Below, one piece after another: positions 11,851 through 56,400 of a stretch of DNA of 64,000 bases. The DNA lies in NCBI GenBank assembly GCA_035550135.1, contig DASZQB010000131.1, forward strand, positions 66,411 through 130,410, in the 5' to 3' direction. The notes beneath the pieces were generated by a model. It had not been told where the DNA came from. It did no database searches and worked only from the letters and a program-made list of their open reading frames with translations. This DNA comes from Verrucomicrobiales bacterium (lineage in GTDB: Bacteria > Verrucomicrobiota > Verrucomicrobiia > Verrucomicrobiales > V1-33). Within the stretch, counting starts at the first letter, position 1. Each line of letters begins with the position of its first letter. The position numbers were made by a program, and so were the translations under genes.

Positions 11851-11886
11851 CGGTCAGGCATATTTCCCATACTTCGCATTCTTCCC

Positions 11887-12687: not shown

Positions 12688-12697
12688 GATGCTTCCC

Positions 12698-13786: not shown

Positions 13787-13843
13787 CCCGCTGAAGTAGA
13801 GAGACTCCTCCGGTCGGCCAGATGGATTTTCAGCGCAACTGCG

Positions 13844-26199: not shown

Positions 26200-29100
26200 T
26201 CACTTTTTCAACACCGCCTGCAATGGCCCTGGCAATGCTGTTTGAGGAGTGAGGGTGCCGGTGAAGGTGTCTTTCTCATCGTCACCAGCCCCCTCCTTCA
26301 TCTGTGCTTTCAGGCTGCCATCCGCGTTTTGACCAATGGTTAGTTCCCGTGTGGACTTTTCGTTCATCCTGAACTGAAGGGTCACGGTCCCGTCGCTGTG
26401 GACATGCACATTCGTGCAGGGTTCGTCCGAATCCTTCCAAACGAAGGCATACCCTTTGGCGTCGTCCTCCGGCACGCTCCAGTTATCCCCCTGGGCCATT
26501 TTCAGAATATTGAGTGATGTGTTGAGTCTTGGGACCGGCTCCAGCGCTGCGGGAATGCCGCTCTTTTGCAGCGCTTCGCGCGTCACGAGGAGACAATCGG
26601 AAAAGCGATTGAGCGGAATCCGTCCGCCGGCGCCCGCACCGCCGGTCATGGGGTTCATGGCGTCAAGATCCAGCTTAATCTCGGAGACCGTATTGATAAT
26701 GACCGCGAGCAGCGCCAGACTTTCAATGGGGTCGTTTAAAACGAGCCTGCGGTAGGGATTTCGCTGCGGGCGCAGCAGGTAAAACCGTCCGTCGCGCCGT
26801 GTGAGATAAACCGGATAGGAAAGCACTGGCCGCGATGCGGCTTTTGCCAGTCCGGCAAAGACCTCCTTCACTTTTCCCTCCGGTGCGGGAAAACGCTGGC
26901 CGGCGATGTAATCGACGAGGGCCTTCATGACGGTTTGCTCTTCATCCTCGGCGACGCGGGATTTCCAGTCGAGCAGGCTGTAAAGAACCGGGGACCATCC
27001 GGGCGGAAGCCGCAGCGCGGCTCTCTTTCCGGCCTCGATGGCAAGTGTGCCGCCGTCTTTTGCGTCCACGATGCTGCCGGCCTTTCCGGCTTTGCCCGGC
27101 GCGGGTTCGTCATCGTCGAAACTGACGAGCCACGGGCCGGCGGGAACGGTGAGGTTGCTCTGTGTCCTGGTATCTACAAACCGCGTGGTCTCCGTGCCCG
27201 GCGAGGCATAACCGGCATCACCCGCCCATTTCAACCATGCGCGGCTTTGGAAAGAGGGGGTGGCGGCGGGAGCATCGGACAGGGTGAGAGTGCCCGTCTC
27301 TCTTGTGATCGTCACTGCCAGCGGTGCTGTTGAATTGCTGCCAACCTCCAAAGTGGCGGGAACGATTTTGATGCCTTTCTTCGAACTGGACAACGCGACC
27401 TTCAGCGGCGGTGCATCCGATTTCGTTGTGATCCTCACTTCATCCCCGTCCCGCGTGACTTCCGAATCGCCCGTGCCGGACAACTGAATATCCGCCGGCA
27501 AAGCGCCGCCGGAGAATTTGATAGTGGTCACGTGCGACTCCGCGCCTGGAGGCTGATCCGGTTTCGGATCACCGTCTTTCTTCTTAGCCATCCACCACGC
27601 CACGCCGCCTCCAATGACCGCCACTGCAGCCGCGATCGCGAGCACCGGCGATTTGCTTCCTTTTTTCTTCGGCGTTTCCTGAGTCTCTGCCGGCGTGACG
27701 GCCGGTACCGCTTTGAGGCGTTTCTCCTCCGCTTCGGCTTTTCGCTGCGCGGCTTCCTCCTGGGATCTGCGCTTTGCTTCGGCGTCGGCGTTGCGTTTCG
27801 CTTCCGCCTCCTCTTTGCGTCGTGCCTCCTCTTCTGTTTTGCGTTTGTCGGCCTCCTCCTTGAGGCGGCGCTTTTCCTCCGCTTCGGCTTTTCGGCGGGC
27901 TTCCTCCTCCGCTTTACGTTTCGCAGCTTCTTCGGCGAGACGGCGTTTCTCCTCTTCGGCGGCCTTCCGCCTGGCTTCCTCTTCGCGCTGCCGTTCTGCT
28001 TCCTGTTCGGCTTTTATGCGCGCTTCCTCCGCGGCCCTTGCGCGCGCCTCTTCCTCTTGAATCCGTTTGCGCTCTGCCTCCTCAGCGAGGCGCGTCGCCT
28101 CTTCCGCGGCCCTGACACGTTCAGCCTCTTCCCGCGCAAGACGCCGGGCCTCCTCCTCCAGTCTTCGTTTCTCCGCTTCCTCTTTGGCGATTCGCCTTGC
28201 GTTCTCCTCTTCGATGCGGCGCTGCTCCGCTTCCTCTGCGAGACGTTTTGCCTCGGCTTCGGCGCGAAGTCTGGCTTCTCTGGCAGCCTTCAATCTTGCG
28301 GCCTCCTCTTCAAGCTGGCGGCGTTCCGTCTCTTCCTCCGCCTGACGGCGTGCCTCCTCCTCGGCCTTTCGCCGGGCTTCCTCTGCAATGCGCAGACGTT
28401 CGGCTTCTTCAGCAAGGCGCTTTGCTTCCGCTTCGGCAAAAATCCTCGCCTCCTCCTCCGCTTTGAGTCTTGCCGCCTCTTCTTCAATCCGCCGGCGTTC
28501 CTCCTCTTCGGCGCGTCGTTTGGCCTCCTCCGCCTGGCGCTTCGCTTCCTCTTCCGCTTCGCGTTTGGCTTCCTCCTCTTCAATACGACGGCGCTCTGCT
28601 TCCTCTGCGAGACGCTTCGCCTCGGCCTCTGCAAAAAGTCTGGCTTCCTCCTCCGCCCTGAGCCGTGCGGCTTCCTCTTCCATCCGGCGCTGTTCTGCTT
28701 CTTCGGCCAGGCGCTTCGCTTCCGCTTCGGCGCGAATTCTTGCTTCCTCTTCTGCTTTGAGCCTCGCGGCCTCCTCTTCAATTCGTCGCCGCTCTGCTTC
28801 TTCGGCGAGACGTTTCGCTTCCGCTTCGGCGCGAATCCTTGCTTCCTCCTCTGCTTTGCGCCTCGCCGCTTCCTCTTCAATGCGACGCCGTTCCGCCTCT
28901 TCCGCCTGACGTCTGGCTTCCTCTTCCGCGATGCGGCGGGCCTCTTCTTCAGCCTTTCGTCTCGCCTCCTCTTCCGCGACGCGGCGCTGCTCCGCTTCTT
29001 CAGCGAGCCGTTTGGCCTCCGCCACCTGGCGCTGACGCTCGATTTCCTCCAGACGGCGGCGTTCCATTTCCTCCTCCATGCGGCGCCGGGCTTCCTCCTC

Positions 29101-32100
29101 TTCGCGCAGCCGCTGTTCCTCCGCCTCGCGTTCGAGTCGTGCCGTTTCCTTGATCGCAAAATCGGCCTCCTGCCAATGGCGCGCGGCTTCTGAAGCCTGA
29201 CTCCGGCAGAGGCCGGCAAACCGGCGGGCTTCCTCGATGATCCGTCCGGCGTCGGCGGCGCGCTGTGGATCGAGCGAAGCGGCGAGAGCGGTGAGTGAAT
29301 CCCGGCTTTGAACCGCGCTGCCAACAGAATCCCCGCATCTTCTCAACCAAGCCGCGCCCGGGGAATCCGGCGTCGCCGTCAACGCCGCCGGATCGGGCAG
29401 GGAAGCAATGGCCTCGTCCGCCGCATTTGTCAGGGTCACTATTTCCGCCGAGGCCGCACGGAAACGCTCCATCACGCGACGGTGCTCGTCCGCGATGGGA
29501 CGAACCTGCCTGATGGCGGAGTGCAAACTTCCCATCACGCTGCGCAGGTCATCGAGAGAGGTGGCGGAACGCTGCCGCGCCTGATTGACGCCGGCGGCAT
29601 CAATGGTGCCCAGCGTGCGCAGGGAGTGCAGTTCCTCCACGATGCCCGCCGCGCGACTGGCATCCGCGGCAGCGCGCTGCGCGATTTCATGCAAAGCCGG
29701 GCATTCCTCCGCGAGGGCATCGATTTCCGCGCGGATCGCGGGAGCGTCCGCTGCGGTCTGTTCCGCCTGCTGGATGAAACCGGAGATTTCAGCCTCCACC
29801 GCGGCGCGCAGTTTCGCCTCCTCTTCACGGCGACGGGCATCGATCTTCGCCCTCTCCAAAAGAGAGTGACAGGCACGAGCCATTTCACCGGCATCCGCCG
29901 CGACCTGTCGCGCCTGGGGGATTTGCGATTCCAGGCGGCTCAACTCCGCCTCCGGCACCTCCGCGGCTTCACGGTGCAAAGCCTCCAATTGAGAAACCAG
30001 GGCACCCGTTTGCGCGGCGAAGCTGTCCATTTGCCGCGCTGCGCCGGCTGAAGGGGCGACCCGCCGGCATTCCTCCGCCAGTTCCTTTGCTTCTTTGGCG
30101 GCGGCTTCGGTGCGGCGCCATGCATCGGCAAGCGACTCCGTGAGTTCACGGCGCCGCCGTTCGCGCTGCTGCGTTTCGCGCTGCAGTTTTTCGGCAGTGG
30201 CTTTGGCTTCCTTCATCGCCGCCTCCGCCTTCGCCAAAGCGAGCGTGGCGGTTTGCGAAATCTCGTCGAGCGCCGCCACGGCGGCCTTTCCCGCCGCCAG
30301 GGATTTCCCGCCGCCCTGACTGATCAGCGCCTGCTTTTCGCGCGCGGCGGTGGACGCATCATACACGCGGGACACGCAGGCATAACATTCCTTCACCGCA
30401 TCAGGGACGATTTCCGCAAAGGGACGGCATGCGTTTGCGATCTTTTCGGCATCGGCGGCCGCCTGCTCGATGTCATCCATCAGAATTCCAGACTGCTGAA
30501 TGATGCCGCCCCAGCGCGTTTGCCGGATGCGTTCGCCCACACTTTCCCATGAGATGCCGTCCGAGACGAACAACTGCCGCACCAGATCCTCACATTTCGG
30601 CGGCGAACTCTGGCCGCACAAATGCCGCGCCAGGATTTGATTAGCAGCGTCCCCCAGGCCCGGCAGCGCAATATATTCCTTCATGGAATAAAGCGAAGAG
30701 GGCGGCGGATTTTTTCCTCCTACAATAAAATACACCCACCGTGCCAGCAGTTGCACCCCCGCCACGCTCGTGGTGGTGGTGCGGGTGAAGTCGCCGCCCG
30801 TTGCCGTTGCGTCCGCGTCGGGTGTTGCGGCACCGCTTTGCACCGCCGGAGAAAGAGGGATTTTCAGGTTTACGACAGACCAGTCGATGGGGCGGTTTGC
30901 GTCTTCAGGCGGCATCTCCACCAGTGTGTCCTCCAGGAGGAGATTTGCGAGGCCCGCGGCGAAAGCGGTATCCATGGCGGTGCTGATTTGCCACACCAGC
31001 GGTGCATAACGTCCGAGGGGCTTGGCGCCCTCGCGCCGGAGAATATCGGTCAGGGAAACACCCGGCGCCGCCTCCTCCACGACGGCCCAGCCCTCGTTGA
31101 ACTCGCTGATGTCCAGCACCCGCAACAGGCCGCTGCCTTCCATGTCACGCATGGCGGTCGCGGCCTTTTTGTATTGGGCAATGGCCGCCGCGAGATTTCC
31201 CGAGCGGAGCAGCGTCACCTTCACCTTCAGCCGTTTTTCGCGGTCGATGGCCTGATGGACGGTGCCGTGTCTCGACTGCACGCCCTTCTCCAGCATAAAC
31301 CGGTCCGCCAGAGCGCCCCCGGAGCGCTGCCGCTTTTGCCAGCCGCCGCTCAGCGGAGGCATTCCCTGAAGGCACGCGCGCAGGTCGTTGAGCAGGTCCA
31401 TCCCGTTTGCATACCGCTCGCCGGGATTTCGCTTGATCATGCGGGCGAGAACGGCGCGTGGTTTGGCGGTGAGCTGTTTTGGCAGTTGCGGCTCATAGTC
31501 CCCGCCTGACAAGCGCTCCTGAATGACCACATCCGCGGCACCCTCCAGAGGATTGCGGCCCATCAGCAGGAACCATCCGGTCATCCCCAGGGAAAAGATA
31601 TCGCTGCGCCCGTCGGTCGGCTGCGACCGGATTTGCTCCGGACTGGCGAAAGCGGCGGAGAAAAGCGGGCGGCCCTCCATCCCGGGCGGCCCGTTCTCCG
31701 TCGCGGTGCGCTGGACCAGCCCGAAGTCGATCAGCTTCACCTGAGGCTTGTCATCCTCATCGAAGACGAGCATCAGGTTAGAGGGCTTTATATCCAGATG
31801 CACGACACCGCGCCGGTGAGAATATTCCAGCGCCTCCGCGGCCTGGAGTAAAAGGTGAAACGTGTCCGAAACCGACAGCGGGCCGGTCTTGATCACAAAC
31901 TCTTTGATGTTCCCGCCGGGACAAAGCTCGACCGCATAATAAAGCTGGCCCTCCACCTGGCCGCAGTCGGTGATGCGCGCGATACCGGGATGCGAGAGAC
32001 GCGCTTGCTCACGCGCCTCCTTCAGGAAGCGATTGCGCGCCGCCTCGTCCATGGCGTGGCGCTCGTCGATGAGTTTCAACGCGACTTCGGTATCGAGCAC

Positions 32101-32223
32101 GAAATGCCGCGCGAGCAGGGTGCGTCCGAAGCCCCCCCGTCCCAGTTCGTTTACCGAACCGTCGGGCCTTACCAGCACTTCAAAATTGCCGAAGCGCAGA
32201 CCGGTGGTGTCATCCTGAAACAT
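26200..32223 (-). CDS. Giant single-pass membrane Ser/Thr protein kinase (kinase, kinase-like domain, long helical region, ER/K repeat helix, TM, extracytoplasmic domain)
   Basis: Hanks kinase landmarks at the N-terminus: GRGGFGRT, VALK, HLDIKPSNLM, DFGL, ASPEQ (about nt 31370-32190). A second kinase-like stretch without catalytic residues spans aa ~300-440. About 480 aa are almost pure E/A/R/K (nt 27715-29150). The TM helix is PVLAIAAAVAVIGGGVAWWMA (nt 27587-27650). The C-terminal ~460 aa have no recognised motif. Confidence 0.9.
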   Translation of the reverse strand: MFQDDTTGLRFGNFEVLVRPDGSVNELGRGGFGRTLLARHFVLDTEVALKLIDERHAMDEAARNRFLKEAREQARLSHPGIARITDCGQVEGQLYYAVELCPGGNIKEFVIKTGPLSVSDTFHLLLQAAEALEYSHRRGVVHLDIKPSNLMLVFDEDDKPQVKLIDFGLVQRTATENGPPGMEGRPLFSAAFASPEQIRSQPTDGRSDIFSLGMTGWFLLMGRNPLEGAADVVIQERLSGGDYEPQLPKQLTAKPRAVLARMIKRNPGERYANGMDLLNDLRACLQGMPPLSGGWQKRQRSGGALADRFMLEKGVQSRHGTVHQAIDREKRLKVKVTLLRSGNLAAAIAQYKKAATAMRDMEGSGLLRVLDISEFNEGWAVVEEAAPGVSLTDILRREGAKPLGRYAPLVWQISTAMDTAFAAGLANLLLEDTLVEMPPEDANRPIDWSVVNLKIPLSPAVQSGAATPDADATATGGDFTRTTTTSVAGVQLLARWVYFIVGGKNPPPSSLYSMKEYIALPGLGDAANQILARHLCGQSSPPKCEDLVRQLFVSDGISWESVGERIRQTRWGGIIQQSGILMDDIEQAAADAEKIANACRPFAEIVPDAVKECYACVSRVYDASTAAREKQALISQGGGKSLAAGKAAVAALDEISQTATLALAKAEAAMKEAKATAEKLQRETQQRERRRRELTESLADAWRRTEAAAKEAKELAEECRRVAPSAGAARQMDSFAAQTGALVSQLEALHREAAEVPEAELSRLESQIPQARQVAADAGEMARACHSLLERAKIDARRREEEAKLRAAVEAEISGFIQQAEQTAADAPAIRAEIDALAEECPALHEIAQRAAADASRAAGIVEELHSLRTLGTIDAAGVNQARQRSATSLDDLRSVMGSLHSAIRQVRPIADEHRRVMERFRAASAEIVTLTNAADEAIASLPDPAALTATPDSPGAAWLRRCGDSVGSAVQSRDSLTALAASLDPQRAADAGRIIEEARRFAGLCRSQASEAARHWQEADFAIKETARLEREAEEQRLREEEEARRRMEEEMERRRLEEIERQRQVAEAKRLAEEAEQRRVAEEEARRKAEEEARRIAEEEARRQAEEAERRRIEEEAARRKAEEEARIRAEAEAKRLAEEAERRRIEEEAARLKAEEEARIRAEAEAKRLAEEAEQRRMEEEAARLRAEEEARLFAEAEAKRLAEEAERRRIEEEEAKREAEEEAKRQAEEAKRRAEEEERRRIEEEAARLKAEEEARIFAEAEAKRLAEEAERLRIAEEARRKAEEEARRQAEEETERRQLEEEAARLKAAREARLRAEAEAKRLAEEAEQRRIEEENARRIAKEEAEKRRLEEEARRLAREEAERVRAAEEATRLAEEAERKRIQEEEARARAAEEARIKAEQEAERQREEEARRKAAEEEKRRLAEEAAKRKAEEEARRKAEAEEKRRLKEEADKRKTEEEARRKEEAEAKRNADAEAKRRSQEEAAQRKAEAEEKRLKAVPAVTPAETQETPKKKGSKSPVLAIAAAVAVIGGGVAWWMAKKKDGDPKPDQPPGAESHVTTIKFSGGALPADIQLSGTGDSEVTRDGDEVRITTKSDAPPLKVALSSSKKGIKIVPATLEVGSNSTAPLAVTITRETGTLTLSDAPAATPSFQSRAWLKWAGDAGYASPGTETTRFVDTRTQSNLTVPAGPWLVSFDDDEPAPGKAGKAGSIVDAKDGGTLAIEAGKRAALRLPPGWSPVLYSLLDWKSRVAEDEEQTVMKALVDYIAGQRFPAPEGKVKEVFAGLAKAASRPVLSYPVYLTRRDGRFYLLRPQRNPYRRLVLNDPIESLALLAVIINTVSEIKLDLDAMNPMTGGAGAGGRIPLNRFSDCLLVTREALQKSGIPAALEPVPRLNTSLNILKMAQGDNWSVPEDDAKGYAFVWKDSDEPCTNVHVHSDGTVTLQFRMNEKSTRELTIGQNADGSLKAQMKEGAGDDEKDTFTGTLTPQTALPGPLQAVLKK
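27715..29150 (-). repeat. Coding E/A/R/K low-complexity region with 99-bp (33-codon) tandem periodicity
   Basis: Near-identical consecutive 99-bp units lie at 28593-28691, 28692-28790 and 28791-28889 (protein unit EAEAKRLAEEAExRRIEEEAARLKAEEEARIRA). More diverged copies lie at ~28221-28322 and 28395-28496. Degenerate periodicity extends across the whole interval. Confidence 0.9.
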
Positions 32224-32297: not shown

Positions 32298-35200
32298 TCA
32301 CGGGACGACGGAGATTCTAAGGCGTGTGAAGAGCACCGGGCCCGGAGCCAGAGCGGTAAATGTCACCGGATCCGTGCCCGCTGTAGTCATGGGTGTCCAC
32401 AGGACAAGGTCGTCCGAACTCTCCGCGGTGAGCAGCACGTGCGCATCGCAAAGGCTGTCGAAACCGCGGTCAACCGTCAGGGTGGCGGTGTCGGCGGCGA
32501 CAACCGGAAGCGGCAGAGGAGTGAACGCTGCGGGATTGGTGCCCATGAAATACTCCAACAGGTTCGTGAGACCGTCGCCATCGGTGTCATCGGTAGCGGT
32601 TTGAGCCGCGGCGGCGGGAAAGCGATCAACGTAAGCGTTATAACCGGAGAGCGTGCCGGAATTGGAGAAGCCCGGCGTGCGGTGATCGCTGATGCCCCCG
32701 TAGGTGGCCGGGTTCCGGAGCTGGCTGGCCAGCGTGGCATCCGGACTGCGGGCGATCACGCAATTCCCCGCCGATTCTGTGACCGCATCAAAGCCCGGCG
32801 TGAGCATGTCCTGAAGGGAGGTATTGGCGGCACCGAAGACGAGGGCGTCGATGACGTTGTTGCAGGTCGCCGGGGAACCCGCGGTGAATTCCGCCGCCGT
32901 TCCGCGGTACACAGCCACTGCACCCGATGGCGGCAGCCAGTCATTGGCACCCGTATTGAGGCGGCCGGGTCCGCTCGCTGAATCATTCCAGAGCACAAAA
33001 AAATCGTTGGCCGGCCGGAACGAACCGCCCAACTCGAAGGCGGAAACGACAGTGCCTGCCGGACCATATACGACGAAGACAAAACCGGTTAGCGATTTGC
33101 CGCCGCCGCCGGGAGCGGTGAGTTCCACAAAGTCACTGTTATCCGGTGCAATCTGCGCGGTGTCCGCTTCATTAATAAAGGGACCCAATTCGATAAGTCC
33201 GCCATCATCCACCACAGTTAATACGCGAGAGCTGTTGCGCGAGTCGCCCGCGGGACCGCTGAGATACGTAAAACGCACCTGGCGGCTGGCAACCGGCGCG
33301 TCATTCAATGCATCGATGGGGAGTGAGGCGGCCCCCGCGATGAGAGAGCCGGAAGAGCCCGGCGGACGGATCTGTGCGGCGAGGGGATCAGCGCCGACGG
33401 GTTCACTTCGGACCAGGTAAGCGGAACTGCCCACGCCGCCGGAGATGTTCAGCACAGAGGCGCCCGCGCCCGCACTTTCCACGATGCTGGTGCATTTGAA
33501 GGACAGTAGAGACGCATCGCTGTCGCGGATGACAATACTCTGCGAGCTGTTTTGATATGCGGAGGAAAAGGCCGCCACGGTGAATGTGTTGTCACCGTTG
33601 CCTGCGGTGGCGTCGGTGGTGTGGAGAAAGAGATCCACCGTGTCCTGAGTTGCCGCCATGGTGATGGAGTCGCCAACATCCGGCAGCAGTCCCGCGGCGT
33701 CCGTGGTCAGTATGGGAGGTGAGGAAGCCGGGTTGCTGTGGGAGCGGACAAGGCGGACGCAGAGGTCAGAGACATCCGGAGGGAGGCCGTTAGTGGGCCG
33801 AACGATGGTCAGTTTCGCGGCGCCCTTGCCCCACAGTTCCGGCACGCTCGCGGCATTGGCCGTGTTGCTGAAAGTATCTGTAAATGTCAGGCCGATTGAA
33901 GCCGGGACGGGGACGAAGGCAGTGGTGCCGTCTCCCTTCGCGCCCGGCGTGCTGTAAGGCCGGGCGGCATCCAAACGATAACCGGAACTGCCCGGAGCGA
34001 TCGTCCCGAAGAAGAATGGCGCGTCGTAGGTTCCCGGCCCCTCCGCAGGCACCTTCAGCCACTGGTTCCCATAACGGGCGTCGATGGAACCGCTTCCGTC
34101 CACCTTGCGGGAATTGCTGCCGCCCTCGACGGCGCCGAACGTGTGCCCGGCTACTTCAAATCCGGCACCATTGAGCAGGCGCACCGCACTGCCATTGCGG
34201 ATATTCAGCCCGCCGGCTGCTTTGCGAATGATGGCATTGGAGAAAGCCGCCGTAATGCCCTCCGTGACAGTTCCTCCTCCGAAAACGACCAGCGCCTGGC
34301 CGGGGAGCAGAATGGAGCAGGCGGGAAATGTTTGCACGGTGGTTTCGTCCACCGCCAGCCGGAACGCAGAGAGGTCGAGATCGGCGGTGCCTGCGTTGAC
34401 GAGTTCAATGAAGCGATCGCTGTCGTCCTCGACCCCGTCTCCATTGGCATCCACGCCGGGTTTCGTATTGATCCCAACGGGGATATAGCCATTCACTTCA
34501 TTCACCACAACGGTGAGCGGCGAAGAGGCGTCATTGTCGGTCACGGTCAGCCAGCATCCGTGACCGGCGACCTGGACGCCATCCGGGGGCTCGGCCACAA
34601 AAAACGCCCGCTGGGTGCCATCCTGCCAACCATCATCCTGCGGCACCGTCAAAAAATCGGCGCTTTGGCTGCTGCCTGCGGGAATGCTGATGATCATGCG
34701 TGATACCTCTGTGCCTGGCACGAAAACCGGCCCTGGAGCGAGAACGGCCTCGGAAAAGTCCGTGGTATGGAGGGTCACTTCGATTCCACCCGGAGGGGCC
34801 AAAACAGGAGCTCCCTTGGAGTCGAGCAGTTTCACATGCGACACGATGGGCGCACTGCCCTCTGCGGCTTCAAGGTCCGCATCCACGATCTCCAGAAAGA
34901 GTTTACCGCCGGAGGGAAAAGCAGTGAAGTTGTCCCGCCCTGGCGAGGGTTCCTGCGCGGTCCACACGGCTCCATCTTTCGACAGCGATTCGGTCAGGCG
35001 ATTGCCATTGGCGTTCTCATTGAACTGCGCGGACACGCCGAGCGCTGTTTTGAGGTCCACGTCCTCGGCGACGGTGAAACTGGCGTAGAGCAGCGCATCC
35101 ACCCGCGTTTCCCCCGGCGCGGCATTGACGGTGGTGACACTTTTGGGCACCGGCGGCGCGCCGGCGGTAATGAAATTGCCGGGAACGTAAGCATTGGACG

Positions 35201-35645
35201 CATTGTGATACAGCACCACGGCGTCCGGTCCGGGCTGAATGGTGTCGTCGTCCGGCGGCAGGTTGGAAATGGAAGAGGCCTGCGTGGTGGCCAGCACAAG
35301 ATCGACCTTTGGCACTCCGGGGTTGCCCACCACAAAATAACCGGAAGCGCCAATGGCGAATCCATCGAGCGGGATCACACGGTAGAGAAGGTCACTGGCG
35401 CCGTTGAAGAAGGCGAGAGTATAGCCGTTCAGGGATTCACCCGGAACTCCCTTCAACTCAATGAATTGAAAGCCCTCGGTGGCGGGCGCACACTGAATGG
35501 TGGATGAATCGACTTCGTTAAGGCTCACAACCGCGCGGAGCTGGCTGCCCAACATCAGCGCGACGAGAGAGGCGCTCAGTTTTCCGGTGAGGGCGAAGCG
35601 GCTTTGCGAAGCCCGGAGGTACGGGAAATGGAGCCTTTTCATCAT
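32298..35645 (-). CDS. Secreted protein with three lamin-tail-domain (LTD)-like modules and a C-terminal TSP3-like Ca-binding motif plus a beta-rich tail
   Basis: N-terminal signal-like segment ...LSASLVALMLGSQLRA. LTD (PF00932)-type patterns: SLNEVDSS...FQFIELKG (N-terminus), VVVNEVNGY...DRFIELVNAGTADLDLSAFRL (~34290-34520), FINEADTAQIAPDNSDFVELTAPGG (~33000-33190). The C-terminus carries DDTDGDGLTNLLEYFMGTNP. Confidence 0.8.
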   Translation of the reverse strand: MMKRLHFPYLRASQSRFALTGKLSASLVALMLGSQLRAVVSLNEVDSSTIQCAPATEGFQFIELKGVPGESLNGYTLAFFNGASDLLYRVIPLDGFAIGASGYFVVGNPGVPKVDLVLATTQASSISNLPPDDDTIQPGPDAVVLYHNASNAYVPGNFITAGAPPVPKSVTTVNAAPGETRVDALLYASFTVAEDVDLKTALGVSAQFNENANGNRLTESLSKDGAVWTAQEPSPGRDNFTAFPSGGKLFLEIVDADLEAAEGSAPIVSHVKLLDSKGAPVLAPPGGIEVTLHTTDFSEAVLAPGPVFVPGTEVSRMIISIPAGSSQSADFLTVPQDDGWQDGTQRAFFVAEPPDGVQVAGHGCWLTVTDNDASSPLTVVVNEVNGYIPVGINTKPGVDANGDGVEDDSDRFIELVNAGTADLDLSAFRLAVDETTVQTFPACSILLPGQALVVFGGGTVTEGITAAFSNAIIRKAAGGLNIRNGSAVRLLNGAGFEVAGHTFGAVEGGSNSRKVDGSGSIDARYGNQWLKVPAEGPGTYDAPFFFGTIAPGSSGYRLDAARPYSTPGAKGDGTTAFVPVPASIGLTFTDTFSNTANAASVPELWGKGAAKLTIVRPTNGLPPDVSDLCVRLVRSHSNPASSPPILTTDAAGLLPDVGDSITMAATQDTVDLFLHTTDATAGNGDNTFTVAAFSSAYQNSSQSIVIRDSDASLLSFKCTSIVESAGAGASVLNISGGVGSSAYLVRSEPVGADPLAAQIRPPGSSGSLIAGAASLPIDALNDAPVASRQVRFTYLSGPAGDSRNSSRVLTVVDDGGLIELGPFINEADTAQIAPDNSDFVELTAPGGGGKSLTGFVFVVYGPAGTVVSAFELGGSFRPANDFFVLWNDSASGPGRLNTGANDWLPPSGAVAVYRGTAAEFTAGSPATCNNVIDALVFGAANTSLQDMLTPGFDAVTESAGNCVIARSPDATLASQLRNPATYGGISDHRTPGFSNSGTLSGYNAYVDRFPAAAAQTATDDTDGDGLTNLLEYFMGTNPAAFTPLPLPVVAADTATLTVDRGFDSLCDAHVLLTAESSDDLVLWTPMTTAGTDPVTFTALAPGPVLFTRLRISVVP

Positions 35646-35891
35646 GGAAAAACAGGGACGGAACAGGAGTTTGGAAAGCCCGGTCCCGGTTCGGTGGGAA
35701 TAGTTGTTTCCCGAAGAAGCGTCAACATCAAAACGCCACGGGCACCCTTCAACTTACCTCCGGCGGAAACGGTCCCCGGTGTATTTCCATGCCACGATTC
35801 TCCGCCTGGAACTCCATAACGCGGACGATTTGAGGTTTGACACGACTGCGCAAATTTCATGCAATTCCAATGTTTTTCACTCATTGGACTC

Positions 35892-38800
35892 ATGAAAACG
35901 CTATCACTATTCTCAATCCCGGGTGTCGCCGGATGCCTTTTATTTAGTGCGTTGAAGGCGCAGGCGCAATTTTACACGGCACCGTTTGGACCGGGCGGTT
36001 CGTGGAATCTTTACGAGGTCACGAACACCACCACGACCTGGAAACTGGGTCACCAAAATGCCATCGCGAAGCAGGCCGGGAGCACGGGAGTTTCCGGGGT
36101 GGCGGCGAATGCGACGACCGGGCACCTTGTGGCAATTGGAAGCTGGGCGGAGAACGGGCTGGTTTCGCTGATGGCGATCAACCATACGAATTCGGCGAAT
36201 GTTTGGATTGGCCTCTGCGACAACGATGATGCGGACCTTGGCGGTTCGACGTGGGCGGATGCGGGCACCAGCCAGACGAGCGATCAGTGGTACTGGGCGG
36301 GAACTTCCGGAGGCACGGGTCCGAACGGATGGCAAAAATTGAGCGAAGGCGGGGGGTATCAGGCGTTTTTCACCGGCGAGCCTAACAACTCAAACAACGA
36401 GGATGCGATCGAAATTCGCGCTGACGGAAAATGGAATGATGTGGCGCACAATACGGCGGGGACCGCGCGGCGGTCGGTGATCGAATGGGAGATCGGTTCG
36501 CTGACCCCCATCGCGGGGGCGCAGGTGATCAATCCGTTTTTTGCTGCGCCGTTCGGGCCGGGAGGAACCTACAATCTTTACATGATGGTCGGGGAGTCGG
36601 ACACGTGGATCAATGCCCATACCAAGGCGACCAGTATTTCGGCGCAGGGAACGGGGCTTCCGAGTCTGATAGGACACTTGCAAACGGGTCACCTGCTGCA
36701 GATTTCCTCGCGCGCAGAGAATTCGTTCGGGACACTGATGGCGAACCGGCTGCTGACGAATACCTATCAAATCGGCGCCAATACGGCGACGACGAACGTC
36801 TGGCTGGGTCTGACGGACAGTGACGATCCGGGCCTGAGCACCACGGAGGCGAACACGGACCGCACGGCGGGATGGATCTGGGCGGGGACCACCGGCGGCT
36901 CCGGTCCGAACGATGCGCAAACGCTGGCGCAAACCGTGGAGGCGCCGATGGCCAACGGTTTGCAATACTGGTTCAACGCAGCGACCAATGAGCCTAATAA
37001 TGCGGGCGGAACAAACTGGCCCTTTGGAGAGGATGCAGGGGAACTGCGCGGAGACGGCCACTGGAATGATCTTCCGCACAAGATTGGTCCGGCGGGAACA
37101 GCGGCGGTAACCACGGTGCGGCACTATATAATCGAATGGGATCTGGGCCTCCCGGTGCCGCCGCCGGAGGTGGCAACGCTGCCGGTGTATTACACGGCGC
37201 AGACAGGGGCGGGCGGGACGTGGAATCTGTATTATCTCGACTACACCATGGACACCTGGCAGGTGTTTGGAAACCGCTACGCCGACGCCAACTTCAACAA
37301 GGCAAGTTTCACCGGACTCCCGTCGATGGCGCTGAACAATACGGCGGGGCATTTGGTGGAAATTGCGGATCAATATGAGCACGGTCTGGTGTACCGTCTG
37401 GCGAATTTTCAGGGCATCTGGCTGGGATTGACCGACAATGAGGGTTTTGGCGGTCAGGAGGCGGGCAATGCTGCCAGCAATCCGACGAATCAGGTCCAGC
37501 CGTTCTGGGTATGGAGCGGGACCAACCCGCCGAGCACGGCGACTTATCGCCGGTGGAATGCCGGTGAGCCGAACGACAGCGGGGGGAATGAGGATGCGGG
37601 CGAAATGACGACCACGGGTTTCATGAACGACAACCAGATCAATAACGTCAACGGGGCCATCCGGCGTGCTCTGGTGGAATGGGATATCCAATCTGCTGTT
37701 CCCATCGTTGGCGCCGTGCAGGTGGCACCGATTCTGGATGGAAGCAGGACCCTGACCAATACGCCGGCCGCGGGCACATGGGCGATCAAGCAGATTTACG
37801 ATCCGATCGAGGCGAACCTGTTTACCGCCACGAAATTCTCACTGGACGGGCCCACGAACGGACGGGTATTCGAGGGCACGGCCGCGGTGATGAATCAGAA
37901 CGACACGCTGGTTTCGCCGGCTACGGCAATCAACTACCCAGGCTGGGGTGACACGGGGCTTTTTGGCGGAGACCTTCCCACCGTGGGCGAAACGGCGAAT
38001 ACCGATGACAACCAGTTCACGCGCTACGCGAGAACGAAGGTGAACGTCACAGAGGAGGGAGACTACACGTTCAATATCCACACGGACGACGGGATGGCGT
38101 TCCGCGTGGCCGGTCAGACGTTTATCTCGGTCTTCGGTCTTGGATTCATCGACTTTGTGGACAAGGGCACCGTGTTCGTGCCTTACGGGGGAGCGGACTC
38201 CAACACGCGGGCGGTGGTGCATTTGGCTCCGGGAGTTTATGATGTGGAACTGCTGTGCTGGGATGCGACGGGCGGAAGTTCGGCGGAGGTTTCGTGGGCC
38301 AGGGGCGTCTTTGCGACGGAAGAATCCGGGGCGGGCCAATGGAGTCTGGTGGGAGACCCGGCTTCAGTCTACCCAACGCCGGTGATCCCGCTGAATATGA
38401 CCGGCTCTCCCGCTTATGGGGACGGTCTTTGGGGACTGCATGTGGTGAGAGGCGCAGGGACCATTGCCAGTCTGACGGATGCCGTGAATGCCTTGCAGGC
38501 GGTTGCGGGCACGCATGATTACGGCACCGCGGCGGTCATCAATCATTCGGATCCGGAATATCCGGGCACGGGCGGCATCTTTCCCGGCGAACTGACGCTG
38601 CCGGGGGACACAGGGGCGGCGGATAACGATTTCGCGGTGCATGGACGCGCGAGACTGGCGATAACCACCGCTGGTCTCCAGACTATCTGCATTCGGTGCA
38701 GCGACTCCGCCGCGCTTCGCATCAAAGGTCAAACATGGCAGCAGATGGGTCCGGAGGCGGGGCTCGATCCCGCGGACTCCTCCACTATCTTTATCTACCG

Positions 38801-39941
38801 CAACAATCCGGCTAACAATACCACAACTGGAGAATTCGCGGCGAGGGCGCTGATCAATCTACCGGCGGGAAATCACGAGATCGAGTTTGTCACCTTTGAT
38901 CGCGACAACTCCTTCTTTGTCGAGATCTACTCACGGAGCGGCAATCAAATCAACACGGCTGAATATGCCGCCGGCACGGCAAATAACGGTCTGGCGAATC
39001 CGAGCGGCGACTATCGTCTGATCGGTTATAAAGGGGATGGAACTCTGTCGAGCCTCGGTGTGCTGGCTCCAGGCTGGCTTCGTCAAGGCACTACGCCGAG
39101 CGCCGCACAGCCCGGGGGCTGGCCGGGAACCAACATCGCCAACTTCGAGACATGGATTCTGGCTAACGGCGTGACGCCGGATTCCACCGCACGGGAAACC
39201 GTGAACGATCGTGATCCGCAAAATCCCACGACGGATCTGGGCATTCCCAATGGTCGCGACATCTGGCGTCAAACCACTGCTGATGACAATTTTTATGTGG
39301 AGCAGTTCGACGCCACGCTGGTCGTGCCGGAAGCGGGCACTTATTCCATCGGCTGGCAGGGAGATGACGGCGGCTACATCGAAGTCCGCGGTCTGCCGGC
39401 AGGTGTGGGATTCAGCCGGCTTGAGTCGATGGCGGTGGCGACACCGGCGATCGTTCCTGCGAGCGATGGCACGGTGAACGGGCGGCTGAGATTGGAAGGG
39501 ACCGGCGGAAACACGCGGACCATGGCGAAGATCAGTTTCCCGGACACGCTTAGTTATCCCGCGCAATTCCCTATTCGTTCTCTGCACTTCGAAGGCAGCG
39601 GCGGCTGCTACTGGGAGATTTTCGCGGGTCCCGGCAGCGGCTACGGACGGATGGTGACCCTCCTCCAAAGCGGTTCCGCGAGCGCCACCGTGGCCGATGT
39701 GGACGGCCTGCAACTGGTGGGCCCGGACATCGAGGTGCTGAACGTGAGCCTCCTGCCAGGCCCGGCCTTCTCCTTCACATTCTCGTCGCAGCAGGGAGTG
39801 ACCTACACGATCTCACGGACGCTCGATCTCGTGAATTGGACAAACGTCGGGACTATCGTGGCCACAGGTCCGACCTCGACCTACAACTCGGGCGTCCTTA
39901 CCGCTGCGGACATGCGGTATCTCTACCGGGCCACGAAGTAG
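35892..39941 (+). CDS. Secreted protein with three C-type-lectin-like modules followed by PA14-like modules
   Basis: Signal peptide MKTLSLFSIPGVAGCLLFSALKAQAQ (ATG 35892; the track start is 35859). There are three ~190-aa repeats, each with GHL(V/L)xI...(W/Y)xGL(C/T)D...EPN...E(D)A...W/M-ND. EPN codons are at 36378-36386, 36990-36998 and 37566-37574. WND codons are at 36432-36440 and 37062-37070. Later segments resemble PA14 (EEGDYTFNIHTDDGMAFRVAG; AGTYSIGWQGDDGGYIEVRG). Confidence 0.8.
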   Translation: MKTLSLFSIPGVAGCLLFSALKAQAQFYTAPFGPGGSWNLYEVTNTTTTWKLGHQNAIAKQAGSTGVSGVAANATTGHLVAIGSWAENGLVSLMAINHTNSANVWIGLCDNDDADLGGSTWADAGTSQTSDQWYWAGTSGGTGPNGWQKLSEGGGYQAFFTGEPNNSNNEDAIEIRADGKWNDVAHNTAGTARRSVIEWEIGSLTPIAGAQVINPFFAAPFGPGGTYNLYMMVGESDTWINAHTKATSISAQGTGLPSLIGHLQTGHLLQISSRAENSFGTLMANRLLTNTYQIGANTATTNVWLGLTDSDDPGLSTTEANTDRTAGWIWAGTTGGSGPNDAQTLAQTVEAPMANGLQYWFNAATNEPNNAGGTNWPFGEDAGELRGDGHWNDLPHKIGPAGTAAVTTVRHYIIEWDLGLPVPPPEVATLPVYYTAQTGAGGTWNLYYLDYTMDTWQVFGNRYADANFNKASFTGLPSMALNNTAGHLVEIADQYEHGLVYRLANFQGIWLGLTDNEGFGGQEAGNAASNPTNQVQPFWVWSGTNPPSTATYRRWNAGEPNDSGGNEDAGEMTTTGFMNDNQINNVNGAIRRALVEWDIQSAVPIVGAVQVAPILDGSRTLTNTPAAGTWAIKQIYDPIEANLFTATKFSLDGPTNGRVFEGTAAVMNQNDTLVSPATAINYPGWGDTGLFGGDLPTVGETANTDDNQFTRYARTKVNVTEEGDYTFNIHTDDGMAFRVAGQTFISVFGLGFIDFVDKGTVFVPYGGADSNTRAVVHLAPGVYDVELLCWDATGGSSAEVSWARGVFATEESGAGQWSLVGDPASVYPTPVIPLNMTGSPAYGDGLWGLHVVRGAGTIASLTDAVNALQAVAGTHDYGTAAVINHSDPEYPGTGGIFPGELTLPGDTGAADNDFAVHGRARLAITTAGLQTICIRCSDSAALRIKGQTWQQMGPEAGLDPADSSTIFIYRNNPANNTTTGEFAARALINLPAGNHEIEFVTFDRDNSFFVEIYSRSGNQINTAEYAAGTANNGLANPSGDYRLIGYKGDGTLSSLGVLAPGWLRQGTTPSAAQPGGWPGTNIANFETWILANGVTPDSTARETVNDRDPQNPTTDLGIPNGRDIWRQTTADDNFYVEQFDATLVVPEAGTYSIGWQGDDGGYIEVRGLPAGVGFSRLESMAVATPAIVPASDGTVNGRLRLEGTGGNTRTMAKISFPDTLSYPAQFPIRSLHFEGSGGCYWEIFAGPGSGYGRMVTLLQSGSASATVADVDGLQLVGPDIEVLNVSLLPGPAFSFTFSSQQGVTYTISRTLDLVNWTNVGTIVATGPTSTYNSGVLTAADMRYLYRATK

Positions 39942-39965
39942 CAAGCGGCAAACGAATCGAATGAC

Positions 39966-40003
39966 CGGCCTGCCTCCGTACCCGGCGGCAGGCCGCTTTG
40001 TAC
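39966..40003 (+). terminator. Probable intrinsic terminator after the lectin/PA14 gene
   Basis: 9-bp perfect stem CGGCCTGCC (39966-39974) / GGCAGGCCG (39988-39996), followed by a weak T tract CTTTGT. Confidence 0.5.
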
Positions 40004-40152
40004 TCCTCCGGAACCGGCGTTTACAATTCTCCGCGAACTTTTCTTGTGCAGGCACGGTTTCTGCCTCTAAATGGGGCATTCAGAAATTCCATGCGCGTCC
40101 CCGGCACGGTTCTTCCTGTTGCTGTTCCGACTCTAGCTCTGATCTAACGAAT

Positions 40153-42051: not shown

Positions 42052-42148
42052 GGTGCAAAATTCTGAAATTTTCCCGTGCCAAACGGCGGGAGATTGCCTA
42101 GTCTCGCCGCCCTTTAGGGAAAACTCCGATTCGCTGGTGCAAAATTCT
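42052..42148 (+). repeat. Two perfect 13-bp direct repeats GGTGCAAAATTCT upstream of the secretin gene
   Basis: Copies lie at 42052-42064 and 42136-42148, 84 bp apart start to start (about 8 helical turns), in an AT-richer leader. The function is unknown; they may be an operator or activator site. Confidence 0.5.
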
Positions 42149-42187
42149 TACTCATCTTCCAAACGGCCTTCCGGTTGCGTACTTCGA

Positions 42188-53499: not shown

Positions 53500-56400
53500 T
53501 CACGGCAGGGTGACCATGAGGCGGATGTAGAGGTGCTGGCCGGCGGGGATGCTGATGGGGGCGCGGTAACGGAGGGTGAGAGTCCCGTCGGGATTGGGGG
53601 TGCTGGAGACCTGGGTCAGGGTGGAGGTCCAGGCGGTGAGAGTGGAGGAGAGTTGCGGGGTGACGGTGCCTGCCGGGAGGCCGGTGGGGAGGCGGAATTC
53701 GACGGTGAGGAATCTGTCAGGGCCAATGGTGGTGACGCTGGCGGAGGGGAGGAGAGCGGAGGCGTCCGGGCGTTTGGGGTCGCCGGCGAGGGCGTATTCG
53801 AGGCGGTTGTTGAGGCCGTCGAAATCGGGGTCGGCGTCGGGGCCGGAGATGAGGTTATCGGCGGCGCTGGCGGGGCCCCAGAGGAGGTTGCGCCATTGTT
53901 GATAGGTCCATGGAATGTTAGTGCCACCGGGGCCGATGAGGCCGCCGGGCCATGCGGAGGCGGTCCAACTGGCCGGGAGGTTGTGATCCGGATTCGTCGC
54001 GGGCGCGATGAGGAGGAGGGACGGACCATTGCCGTCGGCGCGCCCGGGCCACGGCGGGAGATCGCTGTAGGTGAAGTCTTTAATGACGTCCGGCAGCGTG
54101 TCTGCATCCACGCCGTCGGGGCCGGTGAGGACAAGCTGTTCGCCGCCGTTGCCAAGGCCGCCGGTGAACTCACCGGCAATCATCGCATTGTATCCGGTTC
54201 CGTGGCGGAACTCGAAGGCATCGCGGCGGCGGATGAGGAGAATGCTCTGGCCGGGATTGAGAGCGATGACACTGCTTTGGGTATTGAAGTCAAAGCTGAG
54301 TCCGACGGTGAACTTCACATCCTGGAGATTTACGGGCGCGCTGCCGATGGCCATGAGGCGGATGAACTCGAAATCGTCCGCATTGTTGAAGGTGGCGGCC
54401 TCTTCCACGGCGCTGGCGTCGGGCGGATGATACATGATTTCCGCCACGACGAGGTTTGCGGCGGTGGCGGGAACCGCATTCACCAGATACGTGGCTTCGG
54501 TCAGGGCGCTCCACTCGTTGTTCGTGCTGTTGCGCGAGCGAGCTCTGATCGTGGTGATCTGTGTGAGCGGGACGGGCGCGCTGTAAGTGGCTGCCGCGGG
54601 ATTGACCGCGCCGCCGGCGAGGCGAGGGTCGCTGCCGTCTGTGGTATAATAAATGGTTACCCCGCCCGGGACGTTGCCGACACTGCCGGTCATGGTGACG
54701 GTGCTGCCTGCGGTCACGGCACCGCCGAAAGGCGTCAGGACGGGCGGCTCTGTTTCCGGACAGAAGGTGTCAGCGGTATTGTAAGTTCCGTTAGGCGCCC
54801 GCAGGTGGCCGGGAGTGTAGCCCGCGACGCCTTTGGTGCCTTTGGGCAGGATGACGGTGCGCCGCCCCGTTGAAGGATTTACCCAGATGTCGAACCACGC
54901 GGTGCGCAGCGCCTGGCCCGTATTGTATTGCACCAGGGGACCGGCTTCGGCCACGAGTTCGTCGAGCCGCGTTTTGAGTCTGCTCTTCAGCGGACCTGCA
55001 CTGTCGGGATCGCGGTCATCGAGCACGCCGCCGTTGAACATGGCGCGATTCACACGGTCCGCGAACTTGAGACGCCATTCGGCATTGGTGCGCAGGCGCG
55101 CGAAGATGCGCGAGAGGTCGGAGTTGCCGTCGCGGCCAGTGAGGTCGAGCGCGATGGTGTTATAGTTGTGATCCTTGAGGACATTCGTGACGTAATCGGT
55201 GTGGTAGGAATTGATGAGACACGCGCCCTCCAGGTCCCATGTGGTGTAGCGGAAGCGTCCGTCCGGGCCGTTGCTGCGTTCGCGGTAGAAGACGTAGTTG
55301 TTCCACGGCCAGTCCCACATGGAGGTGTAGATATTGAAGAGATAATAGTCCGCGAAATTGTCGAGATCCGCCACCGCCTGCACGACTGTCCAGTAGCTGG
55401 CGCTGGCGGTATTGTTGATGACATTGTTGAAATTGTTCCACGATGTTACGTTTTGGTTTGCGACCTCGTTAGGCAAGCCGTCCACCCATTCGTTGACGTA
55501 GCGCACCTCCCAGATGTTTTCGCTGCGGTAGTGCTGTTGGAAGAGCGGCTCGCGCACGCGCTCGGCGAGGTTATAGACGCCCTTATAGACGCCGTTGAAG
55601 TACACTGAGCACACAAGTCCGCGCGGTGAGACGTGGCCCATGTCGCCAAACACGCGGCGGAGCATTTCATCGCTGATATGCGGGTTCCCGATGTCATTCT
55701 TGCCCGCGCGCAGGCGCAGGCTTTGGAACTTCCGCACGTCGTAGCCGGGGAAGAGCGGGTAGTCGAGTTCACCCGCACCGAAATCACCGCGAAAGAAGAT
55801 GTTCCATGAACACTTTTCGTTAGGGTTCCATGGATCGAACGGTGAGAGGCCCGTATTGCTCATGGTCAGCCGCGGACGGCTGTAAGGGCTCGAAGACAGC
55901 CGGAGGCCGAAGTCCATGTTGAGCGGCTGCTGGCCGGGATCGGCATAATAACCGGGAGGGAAATAGAATTCCATGAGGGTTTCCCGCTCGAAGGCCTGGC
56001 CGCGGCCCACGGGGATGTTGTAGCTGTTAGGCCCCGCAGGATTCCAGATATCCGCCGCGGTGCCGTTGAGTCCGTAGCCGCCGCCCTGGATGGAGAGCAG
56101 ACCCTCCGGTTTGTAGAAGGTGCGTCCGGCATCGCCGGTGAACAGAAGAGCGGGCACGCCGGAAATTGCGGCATCCTGATTGATAAGATACGTCTCCGTC
56201 TTTACGCCGCTGGGGAGCATGCCGGACGCGAACGTGCGGGCACGGACGACGTTGGCGGTTCTGCCGTTGGGGCGCGTGAGGCTCAGTGGCGCTGTGTATT
56301 GAGTGCCGTTCGTTTCCGTGGGCGTGGAGCCGTCGAGGGTATAGCGGATGGTCGAGCCGGGAGTGATCGTGGTGAGGACAAGAGTTTGGTTTGCCGTGTA

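Follow-up and report, generated by a model that had tools for sequence, protein, structure and literature searches.

The stretch of DNA analyzed here (the window, 64,000 nucleotides) encodes three giant exported proteins, and the question that it raises is whether their tails are copies of one C-terminal domain and whether such a domain might act as a sorting or anchoring signal, as the original prediction had proposed. The translations confirm the tail coordinates and motifs given there, and the N-termini of all three proteins are signal-peptide-like. We call the three carrier proteins and their genes A, B, and C and the shared tail the module:

32298..35645, reverse strand: carrier gene A, encoding a 1115-aa exported protein with a lamin-tail (LTD) domain
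32301..32594, reverse strand: module copy A (aa 1018-1115), composed of a TSP3-like loop, an LLEYFMG helix, and a beta-sandwich
32532..32588, reverse strand: DTDGDGLTNLLEYFMGTNP (aa 1020-1038), the TSP3-like Ca-loop plus helix motif in module A, scoring 23.7-24.1 bits with Pfam TSP3_bac (cut-off 25)
35859..39941, forward strand: carrier gene B, encoding a 1360-aa exported C-type-lectin/PA14 protein
39735..39938, forward strand: module copy B (about aa 1293-1360), a beta-sandwich alone without the TSP3 loop and helix
53500..59598, reverse strand: carrier gene C, encoding a 2032-aa exported protein with CotH, two LTD, and CHB_HEX_C domains
53503..53841, reverse strand: module copy C (aa 1920-2032), composed of a TSP3-like loop, an RLEYALAG helix, and a six-strand beta-sandwich
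53776..53838, reverse strand: DADPDFDGLNNRLEYALAGDP (aa 1921-1941), the TSP3-like Ca-loop plus helix motif in module C, which aligns with the motif of the family and has an AlphaFold2 helix at LEYALA

Protein A is identical to HWB07158.1 from a Verrucomicrobiales MAG, a homologue search found a close homologue of B (P0002), and the C orthologue P0008 has the same tail as C. All three modules stop 0 to 5 residues before the stop codon, with A ending in ...LFTRLRISVVP, B in ...MRYLYRATK, and C in ...LYIRLMVTLP; for A, the exhaustive search placed the module boundaries at aa 1018-1113.

The tails had originally been aligned by eye, and BLASTP of the tails alone supports this alignment for A and C (E 2e-5) but not for A and B (E 0.05) or B and C (E 0.27). 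Because pairwise BLASTP is so uneven, the alignment by eye is secure only when a profile is used, and with one it is statistically significant. An HMM of 125 family members, from which the window tails and their orthologues had been excluded, was scanned against all six-frame ORFs of the window and matched three of them, all at the extreme C-terminus: C (i-E 8.8e-22, profile positions 1-104), A (i-E 2.4e-18, positions 2-103), and B (i-E 2.6e-6, positions 30-97, the beta part only). Likewise, hhalign aligned the B-type tail (B and P0002) over the beta part only to a 32-member family alignment that included tails A and C and was free of B-type sequences (97.2%, E 3.2e-11). The weak pairwise scores of A-B and B-C would by themselves be compatible with a chance or compositional likeness of Thr/Ser/Pro-rich tails. 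The exhaustive search, the window scan, and hhalign refute this explanation, to which we assign a negligible probability: the profile statistics are strong, the homologues number thousands, the AlphaFold2 folds of C and B are confident and concordant, and all remaining window ORFs score E 1.5 or worse. Some circularity lies in the family evidence because recruitment was seeded by a profile that itself contained the window tails. Judging by sequence comparison, the three tails belong to a single domain family, and the prediction that these giant exported proteins share a real C-terminal domain was right.

The motifs read off the tails proved to be those of the family at large. The TSP3-like motif, predicted to open two of the three tails, is found as DxDxDG...LEY..G..P in A and C and is missing from B; the (S/T)xxLxxWT motif is the conserved SxDLxxWT of the family and occurs in all three tails (RTLDLVNWTN in B); and the aromatic-x-R-hydrophobic end equals the conserved [FY]xR[LA], which lies close to the chain end in A, B, and C.

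A full module comprises around 100-110 aa, in which a single TSP3-like Ca-loop (ADPDGDGxxN) and a short helix (LLEYALGxxP) precede a six-strand Ig/FN3-like beta-sandwich with the motifs SxDLxxWT and RFxRLxV(xxP-COOH). From the conserved Arg it is about six residues to the chain end (5-7 in 78% of cases), which is often a Pro (47% of last residues compared to a background of 7%). The segment described as beta-rich is predicted by AlphaFold2 to be a six-strand beta-sandwich both in the C tail (pLDDT 93.3, pTM 0.81) and in B, where the six strands follow the same order (pLDDT 85-96 over the beta part). In the model of C, pLDDT values of 93-94 cover the loop and helix block and the sandwich alike, and the whole tail is modeled as one confident unit in which loop and helix are packed with the sandwich. 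Module B is a reduced version of the module, the sandwich only, and the loop/helix part that it lacks is therefore not essential. Foldseek retrieved nothing but generic Ig/FN3-like folds (E>=2.9e-3 and TM 0.4-0.5 for C; E>=0.085 for B), and this is in line with the main rival of a tag function, a plain structural or ligand-binding domain: the module would then be an ordinary extracellular beta-sandwich, FN3/Ig-like or CBM-like, that binds ligands or glycans, contributes to adhesion, or caps the structure and is not involved in sorting or retention. We consider this quite possible, if short of an even chance.

How widespread the module is became apparent only with profile-based searches. A word-indexed homologue search returned no matches for tail A alone and merely the B fragment plus one B homologue for the three-tail alignment; the exhaustive search recovered 2,513 cluster representatives at E<=1e-3, and among the best 150 of them 129 match the module over its full length. 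We further collected 79 genomic loci with module genes (ten MAGs occur twice among them), a set that is biased to the commonest subtype because the query was a six-sequence consensus-like alignment. By taxon labels that mostly come from MAGs, nearly all of these loci belong to Verrucomicrobiota (orders Opitutales, Verrucomicrobiales, Chthoniobacterales, Limisphaerales, and Methylacidiphilales), with one from Kiritimatiellota in addition. Cultivable organisms that carry the module include Rariglobus hedericola, Persicirhabdus sediminis KCTC 22039, strain IMCC26134, and Chthoniobacter flavus. In Pfam, NCBIfam, and PDB, no entry matches the module at threshold, a sequence search of the PDB gave nothing below E 0.2, and neither motif-based nor topical searches of the literature turned up a description of it. 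As far as sequence profiles can tell, the module is thus a large domain family without a Pfam or NCBIfam match that is found almost only in Verrucomicrobiota.

The position of the module in the chain is strikingly uniform. It ends within 5 aa of the C-terminus in 105 of the 129 full-length matches, the last copy lies within 12 aa of the C-terminus in 231 of 238 family proteins, and all but one of 115 six-frame module ORFs from the 79 loci stop within 12 residues past the module. Such a bias could simply arise because modules are added most easily at chain ends, as the ordinary-domain explanation would have it, a possibility that we take seriously without favoring it. However, 97-99% extreme-terminal placement with a fixed end is much stricter than the placement that CBMs, FN3, or Ig domains generally show. 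The module is, in any case, neither a known structural domain nor found internally as often as terminally. At the same time, tandem arrays of 2-5 copies occur in 24 of 238 high-scoring proteins (about 10%), FN3-like internal tandem repeats in P0006 and P0019 match the beta part, and a small subfamily (P0004, P0017, P0023, and P0051) has internal copies only, followed by another domain. These tandem and internal copies favor an ordinary domain and mean that the module can work away from a free C-terminus, and since Pro also ends internal copies, the terminal Pro may simply mark the domain boundary.

The carriers are diverse and include M10 and trypsin-like proteases, haem peroxidase, PL8, GH92, GH28, malectin, and cadherin-like proteins besides CBM96, PATR, PMP-repeat, CotH/LTD, and lectin/PA14 proteins; at least 66 of 90 complete family ORFs have a signal-peptide-like N-terminus by a crude test. 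Module genes also cluster, with 2-5 of them within 20 kb in 28 of the 79 loci. Many carriers are glycan-active enzymes, which often bear CBMs, and this again fits a ligand-binding domain, but proteases, peroxidase, and CotH kinase-like proteins without a common substrate fit it poorly.

Several known domains resemble parts of the module. The bacterial TSP3 repeat (PF18884; DxDxDGxxNxxEyxxGxxP) corresponds to the first ~20 module residues and scores 23.7-24.2 bits against a cut-off of 25 (A 23.7-24.1 bits, best family member 24.2), with 7 of 32 modules matching at E<=1; compared to the arrays of PF18884, the module has a single copy in the invariant variant NLLEYALG that is fused to the sandwich and modeled as packing with it, and B lacks this part. 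The C-terminal halves of discoidin (F5/8 type C) and DUF3999 domains show the same motif order as the module (Y.V..S.D...W ... RF/Y.RL), and this sub-threshold likeness is a further point in favor of an ordinary domain (matches at E<=1 among 32 modules: DUF3999 8, F5_F8_type_C 5). Yet the alignment extends over no more than ~50 residues, a discoidin domain is twice as large as the module, and membership was rejected both for F5/8 type C (PF00754; best 18.1 bits versus 28.2, profile positions 60-114 of 127) and for DUF3999 (PF13163; best 24.8 bits versus 30, positions 141-193 of 424). Dockerins and PPC domains are C-terminal add-on modules on secreted enzymes as well, with dockerin anchoring its cargo through Ca-loop-plus-helix motifs and PPC being a small sandwich tied to secretion. 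They are functional analogues of different topology, and neither dockerin (PF00404) nor PPC (PF04151) had a Pfam match among 32 modules at E<=1.

A close parallel in kind is the CTD of the type 9 secretion system of Bacteroidota (type A, Por_Secre_tail/TIGR04183; type B, CHU_C/TIGR04131), a beta-sandwich of ~80-100 aa that, like the module, forms the very end of diverse enzymes and adhesins exported by Sec, with many copies per genome in one phylum. The module shares this extreme C-terminal placement on diverse Sec-exported cargo, but it differs in its additional TSP3-like Ca-loop and helix, its six predicted strands, its tandem copies, and its host phylum, Verrucomicrobiota, which is not known for T9SS. 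No match to the CTD models (PF18962/TIGR04183, TIGR04131) was found for the three tails (E<=10) or 32 modules (E<=1) in Pfam and NCBIfam searches, and we know of no PorU-like processing or translocon for the module.

Neighboring genes in the window include two with PEP-CTERM signals and one for a secretin:

39961-40842: PEP-CTERM neighbor, Pfam PEP-CTERM 24.2 bits, ending in VPEP, a hydrophobic stretch, and RRRR
41094-41936: PEP-CTERM neighbor, its translation ending in VPEP, a hydrophobic stretch, and RRRR
42053-44677: secretin of the Amuc_1098 family (763.6 bits, cut-off 750)

The secretin bears on a rival explanation in which the module would be a dedicated secretion signal analogous to the T9SS CTD, with an outer-membrane translocon that reads the folded sandwich and may remove it. 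Position, carrier diversity, and copy number are as for the T9SS CTD, and Amuc_1099 (NF042425), from the pilus-like gene cluster of Akkermansia, shares DPDGDG..NLLEYALG..P with the module at profile positions 126-161. But this motif is internal in Amuc_1099, which shows no beta-sandwich homology to the module, and although the best E among 32 modules is 7.9e-7, the matches listed reach at most 18.7 bits (cut-off 50) and are confined to the short motif (positions 126-161 of 321), so that membership was rejected. Similarly, the 574-aa ORF that follows the secretin (44753-46477) was dismissed as an Amuc_1099 analogue since it lacks the motif. Tandem copies are unusual for a cleaved signal and hard to square with one that is read once and then removed. 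Altogether, we find a dedicated secretion signal of this kind improbable; one candidate for its translocon would be the Amuc_1098-family secretin system between the three genes. Co-occurrence with a secretin or protease, suggested as a check, did not materialize: neither the window secretin nor the tricorn-like S41/PDZ protease of the window has a homologue in the 79 related loci (1.14 Mb), and we therefore rejected a linkage of the module to either.

More generally, no neighbor family is conserved across the 79 loci (the commonest, a prepilin-like family, occurs in 7 of 79), the window and related loci yielded no candidate that could be established as a receptor, sortase, or translocon, and no cleavage motif was found in the module. 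The lack of partner machinery and conserved neighbors in the 79 loci again counts in favor of an ordinary domain.

PEP-CTERM genes adjoin module genes in around 12 loci as well as in the window. At locus L047, one of two adjacent paralogues (66.7% identity over 709 aa) ends with the module and the other with PEP-CTERM, and a pair at L068 differs in the same way (48% over 264 aa). The PEP-CTERM/exosortase signal hence occupies the same C-terminal slot as the module on paralogous surface proteins of the same gene clusters, and this replacement in close paralogues counts against an ordinary domain. The two are distinct entities: PEP-CTERM is a ~25-aa motif with a transmembrane helix and a basic cluster, whereas the module folds into a soluble domain of ~100 aa without a transmembrane segment, and assignment of the module to PEP-CTERM (PF07589/TIGR02595) was rejected given that the tails ...RLRISVVP, ...LYRATK, and ...RLMVTLP lack both transmembrane segment and basic cluster. 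A conserved PEP-CTERM partner downstream of module genes was likewise discarded because no homology links the small PEP-CTERM proteins encoded there.

A tag function is suggested by the terminal position, the diverse exported carriers, the numbers of paralogues, the restriction to one phylum, and the swaps with PEP-CTERM. The predicted sorting or anchoring signal is thus partly supported, by position, carrier diversity, and copy number, but not by any partner machinery or cleavage motif. We give about an even chance to the module being a sorting or anchoring tag through which exported cargo is retained at the surface. The N-terminal signal peptide would take the cargo across the inner membrane, and the module would serve as a position-dependent C-terminal handle on many different Sec-exported enzymes and adhesins, its folded, Ca-stabilized tail providing the common element by which the cell could recognize them. 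The tail might then bind a component of the envelope and hold the protein non-covalently at the cell surface, so that the module would do for its carriers what PEP-CTERM and exosortase do for paralogues in the same clusters. Recognition of the module by an outer-membrane export step is a less likely alternative to surface retention. It seems unlikely that the module marks cargo for a Verrucomicrobiota-specific sorting pathway, as an equivalent of the T9SS CTD that is read by an outer-membrane translocon or attachment enzyme, but if this is true, glycan-degrading enzymes, proteases, and giant adhesins would reach the cell surface by the hundreds along this route.

Verrucomicrobiota are major polysaccharide degraders in soil, freshwater, sea, and gut, and how their exoenzymes and giant adhesins are placed at or beyond the surface is poorly understood apart from PEP-CTERM. 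The module HMM is a simple marker for the exported or surface proteome of these organisms and a handle for finding the machinery responsible, and the module itself is a candidate surface-display tag in Verrucomicrobiota. Should it be merely a structural domain, it would still be a large family without a Pfam or NCBIfam model that deserves one.

The three long open reading frames that the original prediction had singled out as giant exported proteins, here called A, B and C, are real, and the C-terminal tails quoted for them are present in the translations:

32298-35645 (-): gene A, 1115 aa, with LTD as its Pfam domain
35859-39941 (+): gene B, 1360 aa, with a C-type lectin domain and PA14
53500-59598 (-): gene C, 2032 aa, with two LTD, CHB_HEX_C/Fn3_assoc and CotH

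All three translations begin with signal-peptide-like N-termini, and the carrier domains found by Pfam are unrelated to one another. HWB07158.1, annotated in a Verrucomicrobiales MAG as a "lamin tail domain-containing protein", has exactly the sequence of protein A. On the tails themselves, NCBIfam gave no match and Pfam no assignment besides a near-threshold TSP3_bac match in A (23.7-24.1 bits versus a cut-off of 25).

The tails had been said to align with one another; in pairwise BLASTP this held for A and C (E 2e-5, the sole significant pair) but not for A and B (0.05) or B and C (0.27), and we therefore turned to profiles, which link all three. A four-sequence profile of the three tails and P0002, a homologue of tail B, retrieved 2,513 proteins at E ≤ 1e-3 in an exhaustive search of 1.84 billion cluster representatives, with a match to the whole module in 129 of the best 150. 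A second HMM was built from 125 of those proteins, excluding the window tails and close orthologues, and run over every six-frame ORF of the window; tail C scored 8.8e-22, tail A 2.4e-18 and tail B 2.6e-6 (profile positions 30-97 only), with the next ORF at E 1.5, a test that is partly non-independent because the profile used for recruitment contained the window tails. Using hhalign, B and P0002 matched a 32-member family alignment that included tails A and C and no B-type sequences with 97.2% probability and E 3.2e-11, in the beta part only. Judged by these HMM scores and the hhalign result, the three tails are homologous and share the predicted module, which is complete in A and C and reduced to its sandwich in B.

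The family consensus starts with a TSP3-like, putatively Ca-binding loop and a short helix (..ADPDGDG[LIV]xNLLEYALGx[DN]P), followed by a short linker, often with LP, by beta strands with ..LTF.R....D.TY.VE.S.DL..WT, by about 25 variable residues and by (R)RF.RL.V..P, then the stop. Many members carry a Trp/Phe-rich stretch (W.R..F.F) at a variable distance of 14-21 residues N-terminal of the loop, in C around 53842-53900 (-) (…WTYQQWRNLLWG…), so that the module may reach some 25 aa further N-terminally than the HMM. AlphaFold2 modeled tail C from a 65-row alignment with a pLDDT of 93.3 and a pTM of 0.81 as a helix at LEYALA plus six strands; confidence was equal over loop/helix and sandwich, and the model thus treats them as one unit. 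Tail B was predicted with six strands in the same order as in C (pLDDT 85-96), preceded by 30 disordered residues. Foldseek searches of the PDB returned nothing more specific than generic sandwiches of the Ig C1-set or FN3-like kind for the C model (E ≥ 2.9e-3, TM 0.4-0.5) and for the B model (E ≥ 0.085), and a profile search of PDB sequences found nothing under E 0.2. Two of the retrieved proteins, P0006 and P0019, contain internal tandem FN3-like repeats (…W…S.NISRS.D..NW..V…Y.YRV.A) that align to the beta part of the profile only (positions 38-102), an indication that the sandwich may be distantly related to FN3 and end after the F-like strand.

Comparison of 32 diverse modules with Pfam and NCBIfam gave no above-threshold assignment to a known structural domain; every match was sub-threshold, that to TSP3_bac narrowly so, and we reject membership in the discoidin, DUF3999 and Amuc_1099 families. 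TSP3_bac was matched by 7 of the 32 modules, DUF3999 by 8 (best 24.8 bits versus a cut-off of 30) and F5_F8_type_C by 5 (best 18.1 versus 28.2), the discoidin and DUF3999 matches pairing just the last ~50 module residues with the C-terminal half of the profiles. Weak matches to Amuc_1099_fam (NF042425) came from ten modules (best E 7.9e-7); the scores listed reach at most 18.7 bits, where 50 are required, and the aligned part, profile positions 126-161, is confined to the loop and helix. The motif DPDGDG..NLLEYALG..P is common to the module and to Amuc_1099, an Akkermansia pilus-cluster protein family, but is internal in the latter; it may be a common interaction motif or merely a common TSP3 variant. 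The T9SS CTD and PEP-CTERM, to which the tails had been likened, do not hold as sequence families: none of the 32 modules matched these models or those of dockerin and PPC. Full-text literature searches by motif and topic found no description either. From the sub-threshold matches and this literature result, our conclusion is that the module represents a domain family which Pfam, NCBIfam and the literature searched do not describe.

This family is real, large and phylum-restricted. A genome scan with two peptide patterns yielded 272 confirmed sites, from which we took the 79 best loci (1.14 Mb); almost all are from Verrucomicrobiota (Opitutales, Verrucomicrobiales/Akkermansiaceae, Chthoniobacterales, Limisphaerales and Methylacidiphilales), the remainder being a single Kiritimatiellota and a few MAGs with odd labels. 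Six-frame scanning, which is independent of gene calling, found 118 module ORFs in them, with 2-5 each in 28 loci. The carriers include enzymes (M10 and trypsin-like proteases, animal-type haem peroxidase, PL8 lyases, GH92 and GH28) as well as malectin, cadherin-like, CBM96, DUF4082, CotH/LTD and Laminin_G_3 domains and PATR and PMP repeats. Of 90 complete ORFs, a crude signal-peptide test accepted at least 66, and most of the failures that were checked by eye resemble signal peptides too.

The module, present in several copies per genome, nearly always occupies the very C-terminal end of these diverse exported carriers. It ends within 5 aa of the protein end in 105 of 129 full-length matches; when 263 collected proteins were re-scanned, the last copy lay within 12 aa of the C-terminus in 231 of 238, and 114 of 115 genomic six-frame ORFs stop within 12 aa after the module, so that terminal placement is far commoner than internal placement. 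Tandem copies (2-5 each) occur in 24 of the re-scanned proteins, while in P0004, P0017, P0023 and P0051 1-5 internal copies precede a conserved C-terminal region of ~300 aa (…EPVGF..TVP…HQW..TP…, ending …PYQP). Among 329 non-redundant tails, exactly six residues separate the conserved Arg from the chain end in 47% and five to seven in 78%, and 47% terminate in Pro (background 7%), as do A (…RLRISVVP) and C (…RLMVTLP). The terminal Pro may reflect a recognised free C-terminus or simply mark the domain boundary.

Several other genes lie near A, B and C:

39961-40842 (+): PEP-CTERM gene, starting 20 nt after the stop codon of B
41094-41936 (-): PEP-CTERM protein with Laminin_G_3
42053-44677 (+): secretin with TPR region, NCBIfam Amuc_1098-family type IV pilus outer-membrane protein (763.6 bits, cut-off 750)
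44753-46477 (+): 574-aa ORF downstream of the secretin, with an N-terminal transmembrane segment, a Pro/Ala-rich tail and no family match
48839-52093 (-): tricorn-like protease with TolB-type propellers, PDZ and S41
52969-53460 (+): small PIN-domain ORF just downstream of the 3' end of gene C

A 2007-aa ORF at 26200-32223 (-), which lacks the module, combines a Ser/Thr protein kinase domain at its N-terminus (aa 25-271) with ~1700 aa that have no Pfam match. The suggested co-occurrence with a particular secretin or protease was not found: neither the secretin nor the S41 protease has a homologue in any of the related loci, so their proximity in the window is unconserved and we reject a conserved linkage. 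When all neighbours across the 79 loci were clustered, even the most frequent family, a prepilin-like one, was limited to 7 loci. PEP-CTERM ORFs lie directly beside module ORFs, usually on the same strand, in about a dozen loci (L003, L005, L008, L026, L036, L047, L054, L058, L060, L068, L070 and L073). The small downstream PEP-CTERM proteins compared share no homology, and a conserved PEP-CTERM partner was therefore rejected. Paralogues do exchange the module for PEP-CTERM: adjacent genes in L047 (7523-10321, module; 10949-14038, PEP-CTERM; 66.7% identity over 709 aa) and L068 (2273-5431, module; 5674-6627, PEP-CTERM; 48% over 264 aa) have a common carrier region and differ mainly in the C-terminal device.

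The predicted sorting or anchoring role thus gains from the strict terminal position on diverse exported carriers and loses from the failure to find partner machinery in these loci. The latter, the generic fold and the weak discoidin and FN3 echoes support an ordinary FN3- or CBM-like sandwich without sorting role, the main rival, to which we give a real though lesser chance; a dedicated Verrucomicrobiota sorting pathway seems unlikely. Families known to occupy the chain end this strictly across varied extracellular cargo mostly serve in sorting or anchoring, examples being the T9SS CTD, dockerin, LPXTG, PEP-CTERM and GW modules. The T9SS CTD is the closest functional likeness, although it belongs to another phylum and a different sequence family and lacks the extra Ca-loop. 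From this base rate, we infer that the module would give its carriers a shared C-terminal handle by which they are retained at the surface or sorted. Given that no translocon linkage was found, and since tandem copies (through avidity) and rare internal copies fit a binding module better, we lean toward this handle acting by non-covalent, Ca-stabilised anchoring rather than as a cleaved export signal.
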